Of a stretch of 13,627 nt of DNA, positions 7,343 through 13,627 are shown piece by piece. The stretch is from a virus (taxonomy: Duplodnaviria > Heunggongvirae > Uroviricota > Caudoviricetes), in IMG/VR virus record IMGVR_UViG_2579778952_000003; one strand, given 5' to 3'. The notes beneath the pieces were generated by a model. It was not told the origin of the DNA, did not search any database, and worked only from the letters and a program-made list of their open reading frames with translations. Numbering within the stretch: the stretch's first letter is position 1; the number at the start of each line of letters is the position of its first letter. The translations under genes and the position numbers were made by a program.

Positions 7343-7591
7343 TTATTGTTTCACTGGCTCCCGCATTCTGCGTCTTATTTTCCACAAATATTCGATCATC
7401 GCTTCCACCTGCTCACGGTTGGTTGCGAAAATTTCCCCGGTCAGTGAGCTACGCAGAAAATCATGATGATCCACAAAAAATAACGCATCGGAAGAAAGCA
7501 ACCGACGATATTTTTTTGCTGTCGTGGTTTCCAGATCATCAAAACCATGAAGCTTTTTATGTTGCTGAACTTCTTCAAATGTCACTGGCAT
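7343..7591 (-). CDS. Hypothetical protein (82 aa), last gene of the early operon
   Basis: AGGGGGA Shine-Dalgarno just upstream of the ATG at 7591; overlaps the ProQ/FinO-like gene end by 10 nt; followed by the terminator. Confidence 0.55.
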   Translation of the reverse strand: MPVTFEEVQQHKKLHGFDDLETTTAKKYRRLLSSDALFFVDHHDFLRSSLTGEIFATNREQVEAMIEYLWKIRRRMREPVKQ

Positions 7592-8112
7592 GTATCCCCC
7601 TTTGCTGCCCGGCGCTGGCGCTTGTGCTTCTCATTCAGCACCATCAGCCGTGTTTCTGCCTCCTGCTGTTCCTGTGGTGTCACTTCCCCACATGGCTGGC
7701 CTTTCAGGTCGTAACGTGCGCCACCAGCTATCAGGGCGCGGTAATAGCGCGGAGACTGCGCATAGGATGCCAGCGTCGCACGTAATACCCCCGGCCCGAA
7801 TGCCAGCCCCCTGACGGCGATATCCTGCATCAGGTCGTCGAATATCCCCACCTTAAGCGGCTTCGGTGCTTTATGGCTGAATAAGTCAGGCCACATCTCA
7901 GTGAGGCGGTTAACGCGTCGGCGGTTTTTGCGCTGCCTTTTGGTCATATGCTGCCACGGTGTCGCCCCTGTGGGCTTCTGCTGTGCGTTCTGATTGCCGG
8001 GTATCACTTTATGCGCCGATGTGGTTTTATCCTGCTCTTGCGCCGCCTGCGTCGTTTTCTGCGGCGTGCCGTAAATGCCTTTCGGCTTCCGGTTAATGGT
8101 CAGCGTTGTCAT
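7582..8112 (-). CDS. ProQ/FinO-domain RNA-binding protein (176 aa)
   Basis: PLKVGIFDDLMQDI and ASYAQSPRYYRALIAGGARYDLKGQPCGEVTPQEQQEAETRL parallel the E. coli ProQ N-terminal FinO-like domain (PLKIGIFQDL ... [35 protein letters not shown]) as recalled from memory. Basic, Gln-rich N-terminal extension; AGGGGAAGG Shine-Dalgarno. Confidence 0.8.
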   Translation of the reverse strand: MTTLTINRKPKGIYGTPQKTTQAAQEQDKTTSAHKVIPGNQNAQQKPTGATPWQHMTKRQRKNRRRVNRLTEMWPDLFSHKAPKPLKVGIFDDLMQDIAVRGLAFGPGVLRATLASYAQSPRYYRALIAGGARYDLKGQPCGEVTPQEQQEAETRLMVLNEKHKRQRRAAKGDTCQ

Positions 8113-9103: not shown

Positions 9104-10918
9104 TTAATTTTTGCTGTCGTCATTTGTGACCGATGCACATGATGGCATCCAGTCTTCTGAATCCTCTGTCAGTGTCACATTTGAACGCAAACCGTGCTTC
9201 GTTTTCCGTTTTATATACTCCCTGCCATATTCCGCCATTGCCCCCGGCATATCTTTACCGAAGCGCGTCAGTGTTACAGGTTTACCGAATCCGTGTGCCC
9301 TCATATATGCCAGATAGGCGTGATAAAGATACCTGCGCGGACTGAACGGAATAATTTCGGCATTACCCACTAACAGACCATCACACATTACCGACGACAT
9401 GAGATAGCCACAGAAGTCCACCAGCGAATCGCCCTCGCGTTTTATCACCAGAGCTTCTTCTGATTTCTGCTGCTCATACAGCAGGCGTTTAGCTTCGTCC
9501 TGGTCAGAAAAACGAGTAAGCAGATGGCGAATCACAACCGCCAGCTCTCCTTCTATTTTTTCTGCCAGCATGGGGTCGCGCTCGTTCTCCGGTACAACCT
9601 CCGAAAAATTGAATATCACCCGACGACGTGAGATCCCCCCGCTGCGGTCACTGAATGACATGGCGTTATTGTTCACCGCCAGCACGACCGCCTGAATGCG
9701 TGTTGAGTAGGGGGCTTTATGCTTCGGGTCGATTGCCACCTTGTCACCGCCTGTAATAGCCTTAATTCCTGCGCCATCACCAGCGTAGCGGGTCATATCC
9801 GGCATGATAATCAGCGAAAAGCCAACCACTAACGCGCGTTCCCTTGCATCTTCCAGCGCCTTCATGCTTGCCGATACTGTGTTGGCCTTACCCGCCAGCA
9901 TGGTGCAAATCTCCGCCATCACGCTTTTACCACTTCCCCCTGGACCTGTTACCTCAATGAATAACTGCCAGTCGTACCGGTTCGCCAGCACCATGAATAA
10001 TGCAGCCAGCACGCGATCCGTCTTGCGGTCATTCTCTGCCACCGAGCAGCGTAACCACTTCCAGAAATTCGGCGCATGTGTTGCCAGCGTTTCCCCCTCT
10101 GCTGGTGGGCTGAAAGGTAATTCACTGGCAATTAACAACCAGTCGTTTTTGTTATGCTCCCGAAAATTACCTGTTCTGGTATCAAATACCCCGTTACTGA
10201 ATCCAATCAGGTTACGGGCTGTATTCCCCATTACAGGCAAACTTAACTTCATGGTATCGACCGCCGATTTAATGGCGTTCTGCGAATAGCTGATCTCCGC
10301 ATCAATGAAAATCTGCGCCATAGCACGCTGTAACTCTTTATCCTGAATCGGCTCCCATACAACGCCGTTGTAATGGTGAACAGTGTCAGAGTCGGCATGA
10401 ATCGCCAGTTCACCGCCATAATGTGCCAGGAGAACTTCGCCGCGCTGGCTTGCTCCCATCTGGTTAAGCGCCAGTGGTGCGGCGCTGTCTTCTGTTTTTT
10501 TCTTAACAGGAAGCTGAATCACCAGACCATCAGAAAGATTCTGGCGCTCACGGGCCAGATATTCGCGCCAGTTCTGCACCTCCTGGCCGTGCATACCCTC
10601 AGGATAAAAATTTGCATCCTGTACGCCTGCCGCCGCCAGCTTCTGACCAATCGCCTTTATCATTACTGGCGCAAGATATCCGGCCCTGAATATGCGCACG
10701 GATTTTCTGCCTTCCGGCACAATTTGCAGCTTATCCAGTTCGGATAACTGCTGCTCCCCAAGCCACACAGGAGGCTCATTATCTCCGGCCATACGCGCGT
10801 CATGTTCCTGCCATTGTTTTGCGTGTGACCAGGCATCACTACCCGCAAAAATAATGACTTCTGTTTCTTTGTGTTTTATGCCGCGTGACTGCTGTTTTAC
10901 GTTCGGTGCCAGTTTCAT
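9104..10918 (-). CDS. P4 alpha-type primase-helicase (604 aa)
   Basis: Primase-like N-terminal half, Walker A GPGGSGKS in the middle, long C-terminal domain; adjacent to the iterons it would bind. AGGGG Shine-Dalgarno; ATG overlaps the upstream gene's stop (ATGA). Confidence 0.9.
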   Translation of the reverse strand: MKLAPNVKQQSRGIKHKETEVIIFAGSDAWSHAKQWQEHDARMAGDNEPPVWLGEQQLSELDKLQIVPEGRKSVRIFRAGYLAPVMIKAIGQKLAAAGVQDANFYPEGMHGQEVQNWREYLARERQNLSDGLVIQLPVKKKTEDSAAPLALNQMGASQRGEVLLAHYGGELAIHADSDTVHHYNGVVWEPIQDKELQRAMAQIFIDAEISYSQNAIKSAVDTMKLSLPVMGNTARNLIGFSNGVFDTRTGNFREHNKNDWLLIASELPFSPPAEGETLATHAPNFWKWLRCSVAENDRKTDRVLAALFMVLANRYDWQLFIEVTGPGGSGKSVMAEICTMLAGKANTVSASMKALEDARERALVVGFSLIIMPDMTRYAGDGAGIKAITGGDKVAIDPKHKAPYSTRIQAVVLAVNNNAMSFSDRSGGISRRRVIFNFSEVVPENERDPMLAEKIEGELAVVIRHLLTRFSDQDEAKRLLYEQQKSEEALVIKREGDSLVDFCGYLMSSVMCDGLLVGNAEIIPFSPRRYLYHAYLAYMRAHGFGKPVTLTRFGKDMPGAMAEYGREYIKRKTKHGLRSNVTLTEDSEDWMPSCASVTNDDSKN

Positions 10919-11214
10919 TTTTTACCCCTGAATCCGTTAATCATGGTTTTCAGCTTCTGGATGTTTGCCCGTGCCCTGGCGTTGCTGGTGGACACGTTAT
11001 GCGGCGCGGTCTGTACCAGAGAAAAATCACGCCGGAACTGATAAACAGGCATCACGCAATCATATTCGTAACCTTCACGGCGGTAGGTTACGCGCCGTTC
11101 TTCCACGCCCTTAATCATTACCGTGCCGCCGTACTGGTCGCGGTAAATATCGCCGCGCGTAAATTTAGGGTGAGTGTTGCCACTGGCAGTTAAGCCAGAA
11201 TATTTAAGTTTCAT
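10915..11214 (-). CDS. Hypothetical protein (99 aa)
   Basis: ORF translationally coupled to the primase; no recognisable motif. Confidence 0.55.
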   Translation of the reverse strand: MKLKYSGLTASGNTHPKFTRGDIYRDQYGGTVMIKGVEERRVTYRREGYEYDCVMPVYQFRRDFSLVQTAPHNVSTSNARARANIQKLKTMINGFRGKK

Positions 11215-11219
11215 TATTT

Positions 11220-11453
11220 TTATTCTCCGGTGTGCTGTTCTTTATATCTGTCGTGCAATAGATCTATTTCTTGCAGTTCCATTATTACAGGCTCAAGAAG
11301 CGTTATTAATGCCGTGGCAATTCTTGATTTTTGTTTGTCGCGTTCATTGTCGCCAAGTGTTTCAAGCCATATGCGCAATATTTCCAGCATGTTTTCACTG
11401 TGAGAAAGTGCAAGAAATGCGCGGTCTATTGTTTCGTGGTAAATATCACGCAT
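11220..11453 (-). CDS. Hypothetical protein (77 aa)
   Basis: ORF with GAGGA Shine-Dalgarno; overlaps the upstream gene's stop by 8 nt. Confidence 0.5.
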   Translation of the reverse strand: MRDIYHETIDRAFLALSHSENMLEILRIWLETLGDNERDKQKSRIATALITLLEPVIMELQEIDLLHDRYKEQHTGE

Positions 11454-12039
11454 GGCTTACATCCTCAGGAAATTTTCTTCTATAACGCGCCTCTGCCACA
11501 TATTCCGCATAATCGGCGGCGATATTCAGTACATCAAGCCCCGTTGATTTATATTCTCTCGTGGAAAGTAAGAAAAAAGCCGCTCTAATAAGCTCTGGCA
11601 TTGACGAAAGCGCATCAGCTGCATTATCAGGAACGCCGGAAAATTCCTGTTTCAGGGAATTAAAACGATCATCACGCATGTTTACCCCCCCCTGAATGAC
11701 CTGATAACCGCAACTGGTCAGCAACTCGATAAATTCCGGCAGTGTGCCGAAACAGCAATCATCACGCAGCCGTTCGCAGGATACCTCGACGCCGTTTTCG
11801 TAGTGACTCACCATACATCCGGTAAAATGCAGATCATCATCGTGATGGCTCGTTGACGGCTTAATCAGTCGCGCACGTTCCGCCAGTTCCAGCAATGCTT
11901 CAACGCTTCCGGCAATTGCACCATCCGGCAGGTGATAATTACGCACTATGCGCCCGTTCTCCACATTGACCAGCAACTGCCCGGTAAATTTCTCGTCAAA
12001 CTGAATGCTGTTAAGGTCAGAAATTGACAGGTTATGCAT
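11446..12039 (-). CDS. Hypothetical protein (197 aa from ATG at 12039), Cys-rich, contains a G8 tract in the coding strand
   Basis: Strong AGGAGG Shine-Dalgarno 5 nt upstream of the ATG at 12039 (the track start at 12057 lies inside the Shine-Dalgarno). G8 (plus-strand C8 at 11685-11692) encodes QGGV. Confidence 0.6.
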   Translation of the reverse strand: MHNLSISDLNSIQFDEKFTGQLLVNVENGRIVRNYHLPDGAIAGSVEALLELAERARLIKPSTSHHDDDLHFTGCMVSHYENGVEVSCERLRDDCCFGTLPEFIELLTSCGYQVIQGGVNMRDDRFNSLKQEFSGVPDNAADALSSMPELIRAAFFLLSTREYKSTGLDVLNIAADYAEYVAEARYRRKFPEDVSHA

Positions 12040-12256
12040 GGTGCACCTCCTGCACATCAGCCATGATAATTTTTCCGGCCTTATCCAGTGCCTGATCGGC
12101 TTTTAGCTGCACAAATGCTAAATAATGGAAGATGCATTCTGATTCTCTGGCTGCGTGTTTATGCGCCCTGTCAGCAATAACAGAAATATCAATAAGCGCG
12201 TGCATCAGCGTAGTGAGCGCGGCGGCTGCTGCGTCCGGTGTGGTTTTATTGCACAT
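12032..12256 (-). CDS. Hypothetical protein (74 aa)
   Basis: AGGGGG Shine-Dalgarno upstream of the ATG at 12256; overlaps neighbours at both ends. Confidence 0.5.
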   Translation of the reverse strand: MCNKTTPDAAAAALTTLMHALIDISVIADRAHKHAARESECIFHYLAFVQLKADQALDKAGKIIMADVQEVHHA

Positions 12257-12452
12257 GGCCTACCCCCTGGCGAATACGGGCAGCGAATACCATCACGCAG
12301 CCAGCCGGGGATTGCTGGCGTGCTTCCTGTTCGCTGGTGGCCTCAATGGTAATCACGCGCGGTTGTGCCGTGCTCAGGGCGATAAAACGCCAGATGTATT
12401 TATTCAGGTTGTACGAGTCCCGCCCTTGCGGGTGTCTGGTATAATTTCTCAT
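12246..12452 (-). CDS. Hypothetical protein (68 aa), first gene of the early operon
   Basis: GAGGT Shine-Dalgarno 5 nt upstream of the ATG at 12452 (MRNYT...). This is the credible 3' portion of the 305-aa track ORF, whose upstream part is rejected. Confidence 0.5.
   Translation of the reverse strand: MRNYTRHPQGRDSYNLNKYIWRFIALSTAQPRVITIEATSEQEARQQSPAGCVMVFAARIRQGVGHVQ
12437..12445 (+). promoter_or_regulatory. Extended -10 promoter element TGgTATAAT on the plus strand, antisense to the first early gene
   Basis: Perfect TATAAT at 12440-12445 preceded by TG at 12437-12438; a plus-strand terminator follows 45-85 nt downstream. No good -35, which an extended -10 can do without. Confidence 0.3.
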
Positions 12453-12530
12453 AGCTACCTCGATACTATCGTTATCGTTGGTGGTTAGAAGCCCGTTGGT
12501 GTTCCTAGCGCCTTCGGGCTTTGCTTTTTT
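12452..12530 (+). ncRNA. Candidate cis-antisense small RNA (about 75-80 nt) complementary to the ribosome-binding site and start of the first early gene
   Basis: Inferred only from the promoter-like element at 12437-12445 plus the terminator at 12489-12530. Not demonstrated. Confidence 0.25.
12489..12530 (+). terminator. Candidate plus-strand intrinsic terminator in the switch region
   Basis: AAGCCCG (12489-12495) pairs with CGGGCTT (12515-12521); an alternative compact GCC-UUCG-GGC hairpin sits inside the loop; followed by TTTGCTTTTTT. Confidence 0.4.
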
Positions 12531-12545
12531 AAGTGTCCCTGTGTT

Positions 12546-12591
12546 AAGGTGACCACCTAACAATAGAAAGGCTAATTCAATAGGTGACCAC
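12546..12591. promoter_or_regulatory. Two direct copies of (A/T)AGGTGACCAC, each containing the GGTnACC palindrome, flanking a TAGA-containing spacer; candidate operator
   Basis: Copies at 12546-12557 and 12581-12591; the second overlaps the likely Shine-Dalgarno (AGGTG) of the Arc-like gene. Confidence 0.4.
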
Positions 12592-12783
12592 TTGTCAACA
12601 ATCAAACGTGATAAAAGCCCTAAGGGTGATGGGCAATCCCCACAATTCAGAATGCGAATTTCTCCAGAGCTAAAAGAGCAATTCGACAAAGAAGCGCAGA
12701 GCGACGGCATAAGCCTAGCCAACTGGCTTAAAGAGTTGGGGCGCGCTGAACTAAAGCGGCGCGGTATAGAACCCAAAGGTTGA
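12592..12783 (+). CDS. Arc/Mnt-like ribbon-helix-helix DNA-binding protein (63 aa with TTG start), divergent from the early operon
   Basis: PQFRMRISPELKEQFDKEAQSDGISLANWLKEL parallels P22 Arc (PQFNLRWPREVLDLVRKVAEENGRSVNSEIYQRV) and Mnt (PHFNFRMPMEVREKLKFRAEANGRSMNSELLQIV) as recalled from memory. An ATG start at 12652 would cut the beta-strand, so TTG at 12592 is favoured. Confidence 0.65.
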   Translation: MSTIKRDKSPKGDGQSPQFRMRISPELKEQFDKEAQSDGISLANWLKELGRAELKRRGIEPKG

Positions 12784-12921
12784 TAGCCCACCAGCAAGCC
12801 AGCACATTCACCATAATGACCCTCGGTTAAACCTAGAGTCATTGGTGTAAACCTGACAGATTGTCCACCAGCCGCAAATGTGGCATTGTTGGTGATGCTT
12901 TTGTTTTCCCTTGTTCCCACT

Positions 12922-12950
12922 GGCGACCCTTTTGCGGTCGCCTTTGTTTT
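12922..12950 (+). terminator. Plus-strand intrinsic terminator downstream of the Arc-like gene
   Basis: GGCGACC-cttttgc-GGTCGCC (7-bp perfect stem) followed by TTTGTTTT. Confidence 0.6.
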
Positions 12951-13045
12951 GCCTGTTATCCGGCAATAGTGGCGCTTCACCACACGGTTGATATAATTCC
13001 CCTGCACTGATCCATTTTTTTCGCAGCAGGTTAATTGTTCAGAAA

Positions 13046-13073
13046 GGCGGTTCCTTATCGGGGCCGCTTTTTT
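13046..13073 (+). terminator. Possible second plus-strand terminator
   Basis: Short GC stem (GCGG ... CCGC) followed by a T7 run. Stem is weak. Confidence 0.3.
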
Positions 13074-13188
13074 TATGCCTGAAAATACCCGATAACATGG
13101 CTTTTTAGTTTCACCAGGACGAACGAAGCCCCGCCCCTGTTCGGGCGTATATCCAGTATTCATGGTTAGATCTCTGTGTTAGTGGATG

Positions 13189-13209
13189 GGTGGCGGCGGT
13201 GCGCCGCCA
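13189..13209. other. Perfect GC hairpin GGCGGCG-gtg-CGCCGCC directly 3' of alpA, with no U tract
   Basis: 7-bp all-GC stem with a 3-nt loop, 7 nt after the alpA stop. Not a canonical intrinsic terminator. Confidence 0.5.
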
Positions 13210-13215
13210 GCCTGA

Positions 13216-13419
13216 TTAGTGAACTGCCTCGCGGCTGTCCTTCCATGCCAGAACTTCGGATAAAGACCAGCCAACGGAACGACCGCCGAGTTTACGCCGT
13301 GATGGGAATTGTCCAGTCTTCTCCAGGCGATACCGACATGAGCGGCTCAGGCCTGTAAGTTGCTGACATTCTTTTTCACGTATAAAGCGATCAGCGCTTA
13401 ACACTATTGCCTCCGTCAT
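13216..13419 (-). CDS. alpA: AlpA-family transcriptional regulator / excisionase-like protein (67 aa)
   Basis: LTGLSRSCRYRLEKTGQFPSRRKLGGRSVGWSLSEVLAW matches the AlpA (prophage CP4-57 regulator) helix-turn-helix signature. GGAGG Shine-Dalgarno 5 nt upstream of the ATG. Confidence 0.85.
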   Translation of the reverse strand: MTEAIVLSADRFIREKECQQLTGLSRSCRYRLEKTGQFPSRRKLGGRSVGWSLSEVLAWKDSREAVH

Positions 13420-13556
13420 TTCTCAAAGAGTCATTTGGTGTCTTATTGTGTCGTATTGTTCCCGCTAGAGTGATGAATGGCAAATATTGGTGACGGTCGT
13501 TTTACAGATATGGGGTAATTAGAATAAAAATACTTTTAATTCATTGTGATGTAGTA

Positions 13557-13585
13557 GCGTAAAATTTTGCTTTTACGCCTTTTTT
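13557..13585 (+). terminator. Plus-strand intrinsic terminator upstream of alpA (antisense orientation)
   Basis: GCGTAAAA-ttttgc-TTTTACGC (8-bp perfect stem) followed by CTTTTTT. The reverse orientation has no U tract. Confidence 0.55.
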
Positions 13586-13627
13586 ACATATTTTTAAGAG
13601 TGATTCGCCAGTGTATAAAAAAACAGT

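Follow-up and report, generated by a model that had tools for sequence, protein, structure and literature searches.

The window analyzed here is a 13,627-nt stretch of viral DNA (IMG/VR record IMGVR_UViG_2579778952_000003) that was assigned, on the basis of gene content and architecture, to a capsid-forming phage-inducible chromosomal island (PICI) satellite of Escherichia coli of the EcCIEDL933/OI-51 type. Upstream of its primase gene lie five small open reading frames (ORFs), all on the minus strand, at positions 12452-12246 (68 amino acids [aa]), 12256-12032 (74 aa), 12039-11446 (197 aa), 11453-11220 (77 aa), and 11214-10915 (99 aa). The 68/74 junction overlaps by 11 nt, the 74/197 junction by 8 nt (ATGCATAA), the 197/77 junction by 8 nt (ATGCGTGA), and the 99/primase junction by 4 nt (ATGA), and a gap of 5 nt separates the 77- and 99-aa genes. 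The Shine-Dalgarno sequences are, in gene order, GAGGT, GGGGGT, AGGAGGT, GAGGA, and GGAG. A preliminary description of the window, made from the sequence without database searches, had listed five ORFs of these sizes with good Shine-Dalgarno sequences and overlapping stops and starts, and both the coordinates and the junctions were confirmed. It had also pointed to eight consecutive G in the 197-aa ORF, and this run (G8 in coding sense, C8 on the plus strand) was found at positions 11685 to 11692. Compared with relatives, the ratio of nonsynonymous to synonymous polymorphism (pN/pS) was about 0.1 to 0.5 in every reading frame. This indicates purifying selection throughout and therefore that the ORFs are real genes. 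Each of them has a PHROG, Pfam, or NCBIfam family.

Comparison with relatives shows that the 197-aa ORF consists of two adjacent genes fused in frame, with the poly-G run joining them. The upstream part, ORF1 (positions 11680 to 12039, minus strand), corresponds to a stand-alone family of 117 to 121 aa, and the downstream part, ORF2 (positions 11446 to 11679, minus strand), has an ATG of its own at 11679, encodes a helical protein of 77 aa, and forms a stand-alone family elsewhere (phrog_24341). PHROG families split the ORF, with phrog_340 covering residues 1 to 79 and phrog_24341 covering exactly residues 121 to 197. The closest full-length relatives are islands with a run of six G (G6), for which RefSeq holds a separate 121-aa protein (WP_000551751) and 77-aa protein (WP_001204078) with an 8-nt overlap between their genes. 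When 1.84 billion cluster representatives were searched exhaustively with HMMER, just 44 related clusters were returned. The distant ORF1-type proteins were separate (117 to 120 aa; 32 to 42% identity), as were the distant ORF2-type proteins, which begin at query residue 121 (75 to 77 aa; 36 to 64% identity), and the split arrangement is thus the ancestral one. A protein database search with a Salmonella homologue of ORF2 gave three proteins only. Stand-alone ORF1 homologues with 22 to 45% identity from Hafnia, Salmonella, and others (P0025, P0141, and P0163 to P0170) have a precomputed match to Pfam family PF27490; this family is absent from the Pfam copy that was scanned, so that the scan gave no match for the window protein or its homologues. 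The pN/pS values were 0.17 for ORF1 and 0.26 for ORF2.

ORF1 itself consists of a duplicated strand-strand-helix unit of about 50 aa with the repeat FTGxxxVxxENGxxV...L..D...G.L.EFIEL, and a low-confidence AlphaFold2 model displayed the corresponding secondary structure (EE-E-H) twice. In natural variants of 67 to 91 aa (P0183, P0122, and P0173), one internal repeat appears to have been lost, probably by recombination between the repeats. Elsewhere, ORF1 occurs with other 3' ends (e.g., ...VIQSKTQE before the stop), and ORF2 follows a gene resembling the 74-aa gene (g74) in CFT073, E500002, and many other strains. The idea that ORF1 and ORF2 constitute a toxin-antitoxin system or another obligate pair was rejected because the cassettes recombine independently: the two are not always together, both occur with other partners and junctions, and no PADLOC match was obtained. 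An 844-aa database protein with 14 tandem units of about 60 aa (P0148) matched the C-terminal half of ORF2 and is probably an assembly artifact.

In coding sense, the G8 run is embedded in cag ggg ggg gta aac ATG. The run supplies the Gly-Gly codons at the tail of ORF1, forms a putative Shine-Dalgarno-like element at a distance of 5 nt upstream of the start codon of ORF2, and constitutes a slippage hotspot. C-terminal codons of other genes of the block also double as the ribosome-binding site of the next gene, such as AGGAGGT within ...VQEVHHA. In the G6 and G9 states, ORF1 ends with ...GG(G)KHA at a TGA inside ATGCGTGA that overlaps the ORF2 start. In the G7 state, ORF1 ends with ...QGG at a TAA right after the run, and the ORF2 ATG follows 2 nt later. 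In the G5 and G8 states, the two frames are joined (192 to 197 aa). RefSeq products exist for every state, either as proteins of 118, 121, or 122 aa plus 77 aa or as fused proteins of 192 to 197 aa. No run length truncates ORF1 or ORF2, and both coding sequences are complete in all three frames. The cassette order of the block is Icd-like gene (the 68-aa gene of the window), g74, ORF1, ORF2, g77 (77 aa), rgdR (99 aa), and primase. Most relatives have six genes at this place; the count of five is a product of the G8 allele.

To quantify run lengths, queries of 67 to 71 nt that differed only in the length of the run were matched exactly against 5,426 complete E. coli genomes. G5 was found in 4 genomes, G6 in 233, G7 in 9, G8 in 41, and G9 in 7, and these counts cover 294 of the approximately 296 genomes that carry the ORF1/ORF2 junction. 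Scanning genome and metagenome collections with a degenerate pattern was unspecific, with many chance hits in GC-rich genomes, and a filter for the extended ORF2 start left 75 true loci. In metagenomes and species-representative genomes, the ORF1/ORF2 junction was represented by G5 (2 loci), G6 (25 loci), G7 (3 loci), and G9 (2 loci, including one from Escherichia ruysiae). The fused G8 form corresponds to WP_000551748 of O157:H7, and the fused G5 form (196 aa) was present on 131 contigs, including contigs of Shigella dysenteriae. Identical 300-nt flanks (150 nt on each side) carried G7, G8, and G9 in one case, G5 and G6 in another, and G8 and G9 in a third, while G6 haplotypes were uniform. 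Since identical flanks carry different run lengths, slippage is recurrent, and variation on identical flanks together with uniform G6 haplotypes is what length-dependent slipped-strand mispairing predicts. The preliminary description had suggested comparing the length of the run across relatives and had named an invariant G8 as the result that would speak against its proposal; the run proved to be variable (G5 to G9). The occurrence of the run alone was unremarkable, as two G8/C8 runs were observed in the window versus 0.46 expected and 18 of 200 shuffled sequences reached two. The G8 run is notable because it stays at a fixed place in a gene junction and because its length is polymorphic in relatives.

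A second type of junction was found in approximately 620 genomes that share an identical start of ORF2 (its first 51 nt) but have a different gene upstream of it. This upstream gene is a g74 relative that ends with ...CENGG, and the junction reads gaaaatG(7-10)ttATG. Among the metagenome and species-representative loci, its length was G7 in 9, G8 in 22, G9 in 10, and G10 in 2 cases, with a similar spread in complete genomes. G7 and G10 lead to fusions of 154 or 155 aa, which are abundant in protein databases and form phrog_2512. At the commonest length in both contexts, the upstream gene ends at the same TGA of ATGCGTGA. Across both contexts, the distance from the run to the downstream ORF2 ATG is 2 to 5 nt, as is proper for a Shine-Dalgarno sequence. 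As judged by comparing the two contexts, the poly-G run is a sequence that travels with ORF2.

Further homopolymers were observed in the window and in related islands. The second C8 run of the window (positions 510 to 517) lies between two copies of AAATAACCCGCAA at the noncoding end of the island, and a pair of runs, A8 and then G6 (positions 681 to 695), is located 170 nt beyond it; all of these have the same lengths in the island of strain E500002. Islands of the Shiga toxin-producing E. coli (STEC) type contain a 66-aa gene after ORF2, which is ORF1-like with one repeat and shows a T7/T6 polymorphism (L003, 2114 to 2313, and L007 and L008, 800 to 999, compared with L006, 799 to 999), the T6 form being annotated as "frameshifted." Thus, another homopolymer of the same operon varies as well.

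We interpret the poly-G run as probably a tolerated hypermutable junction that toggles ORF1 and ORF2 between a split and a fused state, not as an on/off switch. In the common G6 state, the ORF1 stop in ATGCGTGA overlaps the ORF2 start in a classic translational-coupling arrangement. The run changes its length by slipped-strand mispairing, and each change would determine whether the ORF1 and ORF2 proteins are separate or tethered 1:1. ORF2 would retain its own start signals throughout, and neither coding sequence would ever be truncated; length changes could thus be tolerated and accumulate as polymorphism, with no on/off switching. A tolerated mutational hotspot fits the data best because one-base changes outnumber two-base changes, longer runs are more variable, and all three frames are present. 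The fused forms persist widely (G5, G8, and the 154-aa families). The preliminary description had proposed a slipped-strand on/off switch; the slippage part is borne out by the G5 to G9 range on identical flanks, but the on/off part is not, as both genes are intact in all frames. Jointly with this interpretation, we regard the block as probably representing the promoter-proximal small genes of an operon downstream of alpA, a mosaic of exchangeable cassettes with a layout as for translational coupling. Control of the operon by AlpA is presumed by analogy with work on other PICIs.

Several points weigh against a tolerated junction. A function of the fused protein and additional internal initiation of ORF2 in the G8 state are only putative, and the G run is a ribosome-binding site only putatively, by its sequence and position. 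The fused frames constitute a minority (45 of 294 genomes; 15%), which could mean mild counterselection instead of neutrality, and one G8 allele is labeled a pseudogene by the Prokaryotic Genome Annotation Pipeline (PGAP).

The junction resembles the homopolymer contingency loci with poly-G/C runs of Neisseria, Campylobacter, and Bordetella (PMC1891110, PMC2831843) in that a coding G/C run varies in length among close relatives by slipped-strand mispairing, and more so when it is longer. It differs from them in that the run occupies the final codons of a gene together with the ribosome-binding region of the gene that follows, resulting in split or fused products and not in ON/OFF states. Of the hallmarks of contingency loci, length polymorphism on identical sequence was present here, while ON/OFF switching by frameshift and premature stop was absent. 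To our knowledge, homopolymer contingency loci are uncommon in E. coli. A true contingency locus, at which selection keeps the slippery run so that satellite lineages can go back and forth between separate and tethered forms of ORF1/ORF2 (or g74-like/ORF2) with differing activities, would be consistent with the length variation on identical flanks, with the two independent upstream contexts, and with the retention of a long run in the g74-like context (modal G8; range, G7 to G10), although a canonical AGGAGG would serve there. Fused and split states are, moreover, both common, and both are of sufficient age to be represented by RefSeq and PHROG families of their own, and the split and tethered activities might differ by helper phage or host background. 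However, neither protein is abolished in any state, so there is no obvious OFF state, and the spectrum looks mutational (one-base changes exceed two-base changes, variability grows with run length, and G6 haplotypes are uniform). The G8 alleles of complete genomes largely belong to one STEC-associated haplotype and thus appear to be inherited and not rapidly switching, and expression is expected only after AlpA induction (PMC6092414), which leaves little opportunity for selection. We therefore consider a contingency locus unlikely. The particular version of a selected reversible "fusion/fission" switch, which would tether ORF2 to an upstream small protein or release it and thereby alter the dealings of the satellite with its helper phage or host, appears more unlikely still.

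The state of the window itself could be explained differently if its G8 were a homopolymer sequencing or assembly error and the real allele were G6. The window sequence is from a draft genome, and no complete genome pairs its flanking haplotype with G8; the best 120-nt matches have 98.3% identity, with a 2-nt gap as the sole difference. A two-base error would be unusual, though, and the exact 197-aa protein has a nonredundant RefSeq accession and a UniRef100 entry with three members. Together with the genuine G8 of 41 finished genomes and the occurrence of G5 on the haplotype of the window, this makes an error improbable. Quite improbable, too, is the reverse of the proposed history, in which the fused 197-aa protein would be functional and ancestral and the split G6 form would be a decayed frameshift allele. 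The abundance of fusions (G5 on 131 contigs, G8 in 41 genomes, and many 154-aa clusters) would agree with such a history, but all distant homologues that were found (22 to 49% identity) are stand-alone proteins of the ORF1 or ORF2 type. Split states also account for 85% of the genomes, ORF2 has its own ATG and Shine-Dalgarno-like run and pairs with different partners, and the modal state of both contexts uses the coupling overlap ATGCGTGA. Homopolymer runs of 8 to 10 nt can cause RNA polymerase slippage, and any allele might yield a mixture of split and fused products by transcriptional slippage or programmed frameshifting, with the DNA length shifting only the ratio. A possible hairpin formed by TTCAGGG...CCCTGAA (positions 11630 to 11760, minus strand) could enclose the ribosome-binding run and the ATG of ORF2 in its loop. 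Yet the predicted fold is not unusual (z = -1.4), the TTCAGGG...CCCTGAA repeat is absent in the g74-like context, and the known bacterial cases use A or T runs, which renders a mixture at the RNA or ribosome level very improbable.

If the tract is merely a tolerated hotspot, as we favor, the finding mainly clarifies annotation. The "197-aa gene" and the many 154-aa "genes" in databases are slippage fusions of separate cassettes, which accounts for inconsistent annotation, including pseudogene calls and PHROG families of mixed content. The ORF1/ORF2 junction is furthermore a naturally occurring marker for the instability of homopolymers in E. coli. A selected switch, if true, would change how the satellite handles its helper phage or host. 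The split/fused polymorphism is what is new here, and it was not found described in the literature searched, which yielded nothing on g74, ORF1, ORF2, or g77 and nothing on homopolymer variation in PICIs.

The only gene of the block that has been studied is the 99-aa gene (positions 10915 to 11214, minus strand), the last one before the primase. Its product matched PF13973 (DUF4222) over residues 16 to 68 (E value of 1.6e-24; 85.7 bits versus a cutoff of 27). An alignment with ECs1581, which is RgdR of O-island 51/CP-933C/Sp7, covered the full length without gaps, with 79 of 99 residues identical (80%) and 85% positives. Flockhart et al. regarded full-length similarity above 77% to ECs1581 as indicating an RgdR orthologue (PMC3378721), and the 99-aa protein exceeds this threshold. 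By this alignment, the 99-aa gene is an rgdR orthologue. The two proteins are of equal length, their core residues 20 to 68 differ at one position, and both genes are located directly upstream of the replication gene in a PICI-type island, but the N- and C-terminal tails of the 99-aa protein diverge. R20-G21-D22 (...KFTRGDIY...) and K35 (...MIKGVEE...) are kept. RgdR is an activator of the type III secretion that the LEE (locus of enterocyte effacement) encodes; deleting RgdR or OI-51 lowers type III secretion, and RgdR stimulates the LEE1 promoter, an effect for which Ler, GrlA, and QseC are not needed, while its overexpression represses motility in enterohemorrhagic E. coli (PMC3378721). The same work described RgdR as small and basic, showed by gel shifts that its DNA binding is not sequence specific, found that residue 20 and K35 affect its activity, and showed that the CFT073 orthologue is functionally interchangeable (PMC3378721). 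The constant site directly before the replication gene suggests that RgdR may also have a role in the cycle of the satellite itself. The neighbors in Sp7 differ from those in the window, as ECs1578 and ECs1579 are unrelated to g74, ORF1, and ORF2.

The 68-aa gene (positions 12246 to 12452, minus strand; Shine-Dalgarno sequence GAGGT) is the first gene after the divergent regulatory region. Its product matched the NCBIfam model NF033153 (phage_ICD_like) with an E value of 1.5e-19 (69.7 bits versus a cutoff of 25) and phrog_6196 (2e-43), shares 54% identity with ECs1577 of Sakai Sp7, and has a pN/pS of 0.2 to 0.5. By the family model, the protein is Icd-like, and inhibition of host cell division is a putative function. 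It shares with Icd of phage P1 the match to this model but differs from it in context: an immI-type arrangement was not found, with no C4-like RNA and no antirepressor downstream, where g74 and ORF1 are located instead. A P1 C4- or P4 CI-like RNA beside the gene was considered and was not supported, since Rfam gave no match at the gathering score for the whole window and none at E values up to 1 for positions 10800 to 13627. A tblastn search of the phage collection at an E value of 1e-3 gave no match to the Icd-like gene in true phages and only one 16.5-kb "induced prophage" record. This sole match, LR881103.1 (Escherichia phage vB_KppS-Ant), has a size that suggests a capsid-forming PICI deposited as a phage. 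The sequence GTGGTCACCT, which contains the palindrome GGTCACC, was observed twice without mismatch on the minus strand between the divergent ribbon-helix-helix gene and the start of the Icd-like gene (positions 12547 to 12556 and 12582 to 12591, 35 nt apart). As many matches occurred in only 4 of 200 shuffled sequences, and the copies look like candidate operator sites. A 305-aa open frame (positions 12246 to 13163, minus strand) extends from just after alpA into the Icd-like gene. The residues MNTGYTPEQGRGFVRP at its beginning match those with which a BRO-N/AntA-type gene located after alpA starts in related islands (P0195 and L003), and by this match the frame looks like the remnant of a replaced cassette. 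The frame may be the reason for over-long Icd-like calls by PGAP in relatives.

With the RGD of the 99-aa protein at residues 20 to 22 and the Icd-like family match, the statement of the preliminary description that none of the five proteins shows a recognizable motif was contradicted for two of them. Its label of unknown function is likewise superseded for RgdR and the Icd-like protein but holds for the remaining families. It had further proposed derepression, helper interference, or host takeover for this position; a host-directed role loosely fits RgdR and the Icd-like protein, but derepression and interference found no support here. No gene of the block matched a replication accessory protein, the kind of mundane homology that had been named as a counterargument. 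The acidic helical protein g74 (positions 12032 to 12256, minus strand) matched phrog_5146 (1e-44) and has a pN/pS of 0.18 to 0.25; its relatives are found directly upstream of ORF2 in other islands, often fused with ORF2 as 154-aa proteins. The acidic helical protein g77 (77 aa; positions 11220 to 11453, minus strand) matched phrog_2196 (8e-42), with 26% identity to ECs1580 of Sakai Sp7 and a pN/pS of 0.12 versus CFT073. The proteins g74, ORF1, ORF2, and g77 are all small and acidic (net charge of -2 to -10) and match PHROG families of unknown function, and they gave no match in PADLOC, in the Protein Data Bank, or in the Pfam copy searched, which lacks PF27490. PADLOC defense models gave zero matches for the proteins of the block, and no paralogy was detected among its six proteins. 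A sequence search of solved structures with the five proteins and with ORF1 and ORF2 profiles returned nothing credible (best E value of 0.004, to a segment of a transhydrogenase). ORF1 and ORF2 were absent from the phage collection searched, in which g74 and g77 were not queried. AlphaFold2 models of the fused 197-aa protein and of ORF1 alone (23 homologues) reached a predicted local distance difference test score of 46 and 58, respectively, and a fold search with them gave nothing. Most likely, g74, ORF1, ORF2, and g77 bind to proteins of the host, the helper phage, or the satellite; a narrow distribution in enterobacteria and shuffling in the manner of cassettes would suit satellite-specific protein binders.

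The gene following the block in the same operon encodes a D5/P4-type primase-helicase (positions 9104 to 10918, minus strand) that matched Pfam D5_N, DUF5906, and Pox_D5 as well as TIGR01613 and phrog_864 (5e-193). The minus strand of the window furthermore carries genes for TerL, TerS, an HNH endonuclease, a head-tail connector, portal, a prohead protease, and an HK97-type major capsid protein, followed by a ProQ/FinO-like protein, an SSB (protein that binds single-stranded DNA), the primase, the five small ORFs, and, further upstream, an AlpA-family regulator. A small ribbon-helix-helix gene between the AlpA gene and the small ORFs is on the plus strand. The window thus shows the features of capsid-forming PICIs, namely, alpA, a primase/rep gene, and the complete set of capsid and packaging genes but no tail genes on an island of about 15 kb. 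The tyrosine integrase lies outside the window; it adjoins the near-identical island of E. coli E500002, which was the closest match among complete genomes (99.7% identity across 94% of the window). The architecture equals that of prophage Sp7/O-island 51/CP-933C of O157:H7 Sakai, i.e., of the prototype EcCIEDL933, and the order of alpA, small genes, primase, SSB, capsid, protease, portal, connectors, and terS/terL is the same as in other capsid-forming PICIs (bioRxiv 10.1101/2022.09.08.507074; 10.1101/2025.02.11.637232), whereas the small-gene block of the window is another mosaic. These two papers on the EcCIEDL933 type give no function for the small genes and mention only a variable gene of unknown function 3' of alpA. 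Some part of the small-gene block was present in about 1,800 of the 5,426 complete E. coli genomes, including O157:H7, uropathogenic strain CFT073, and Nissle 1917. The ProQ/FinO-family RNA-chaperone-like gene (positions 7582 to 8112, minus strand) sits between the capsid and replication modules and is annotated likewise in the E500002 island.

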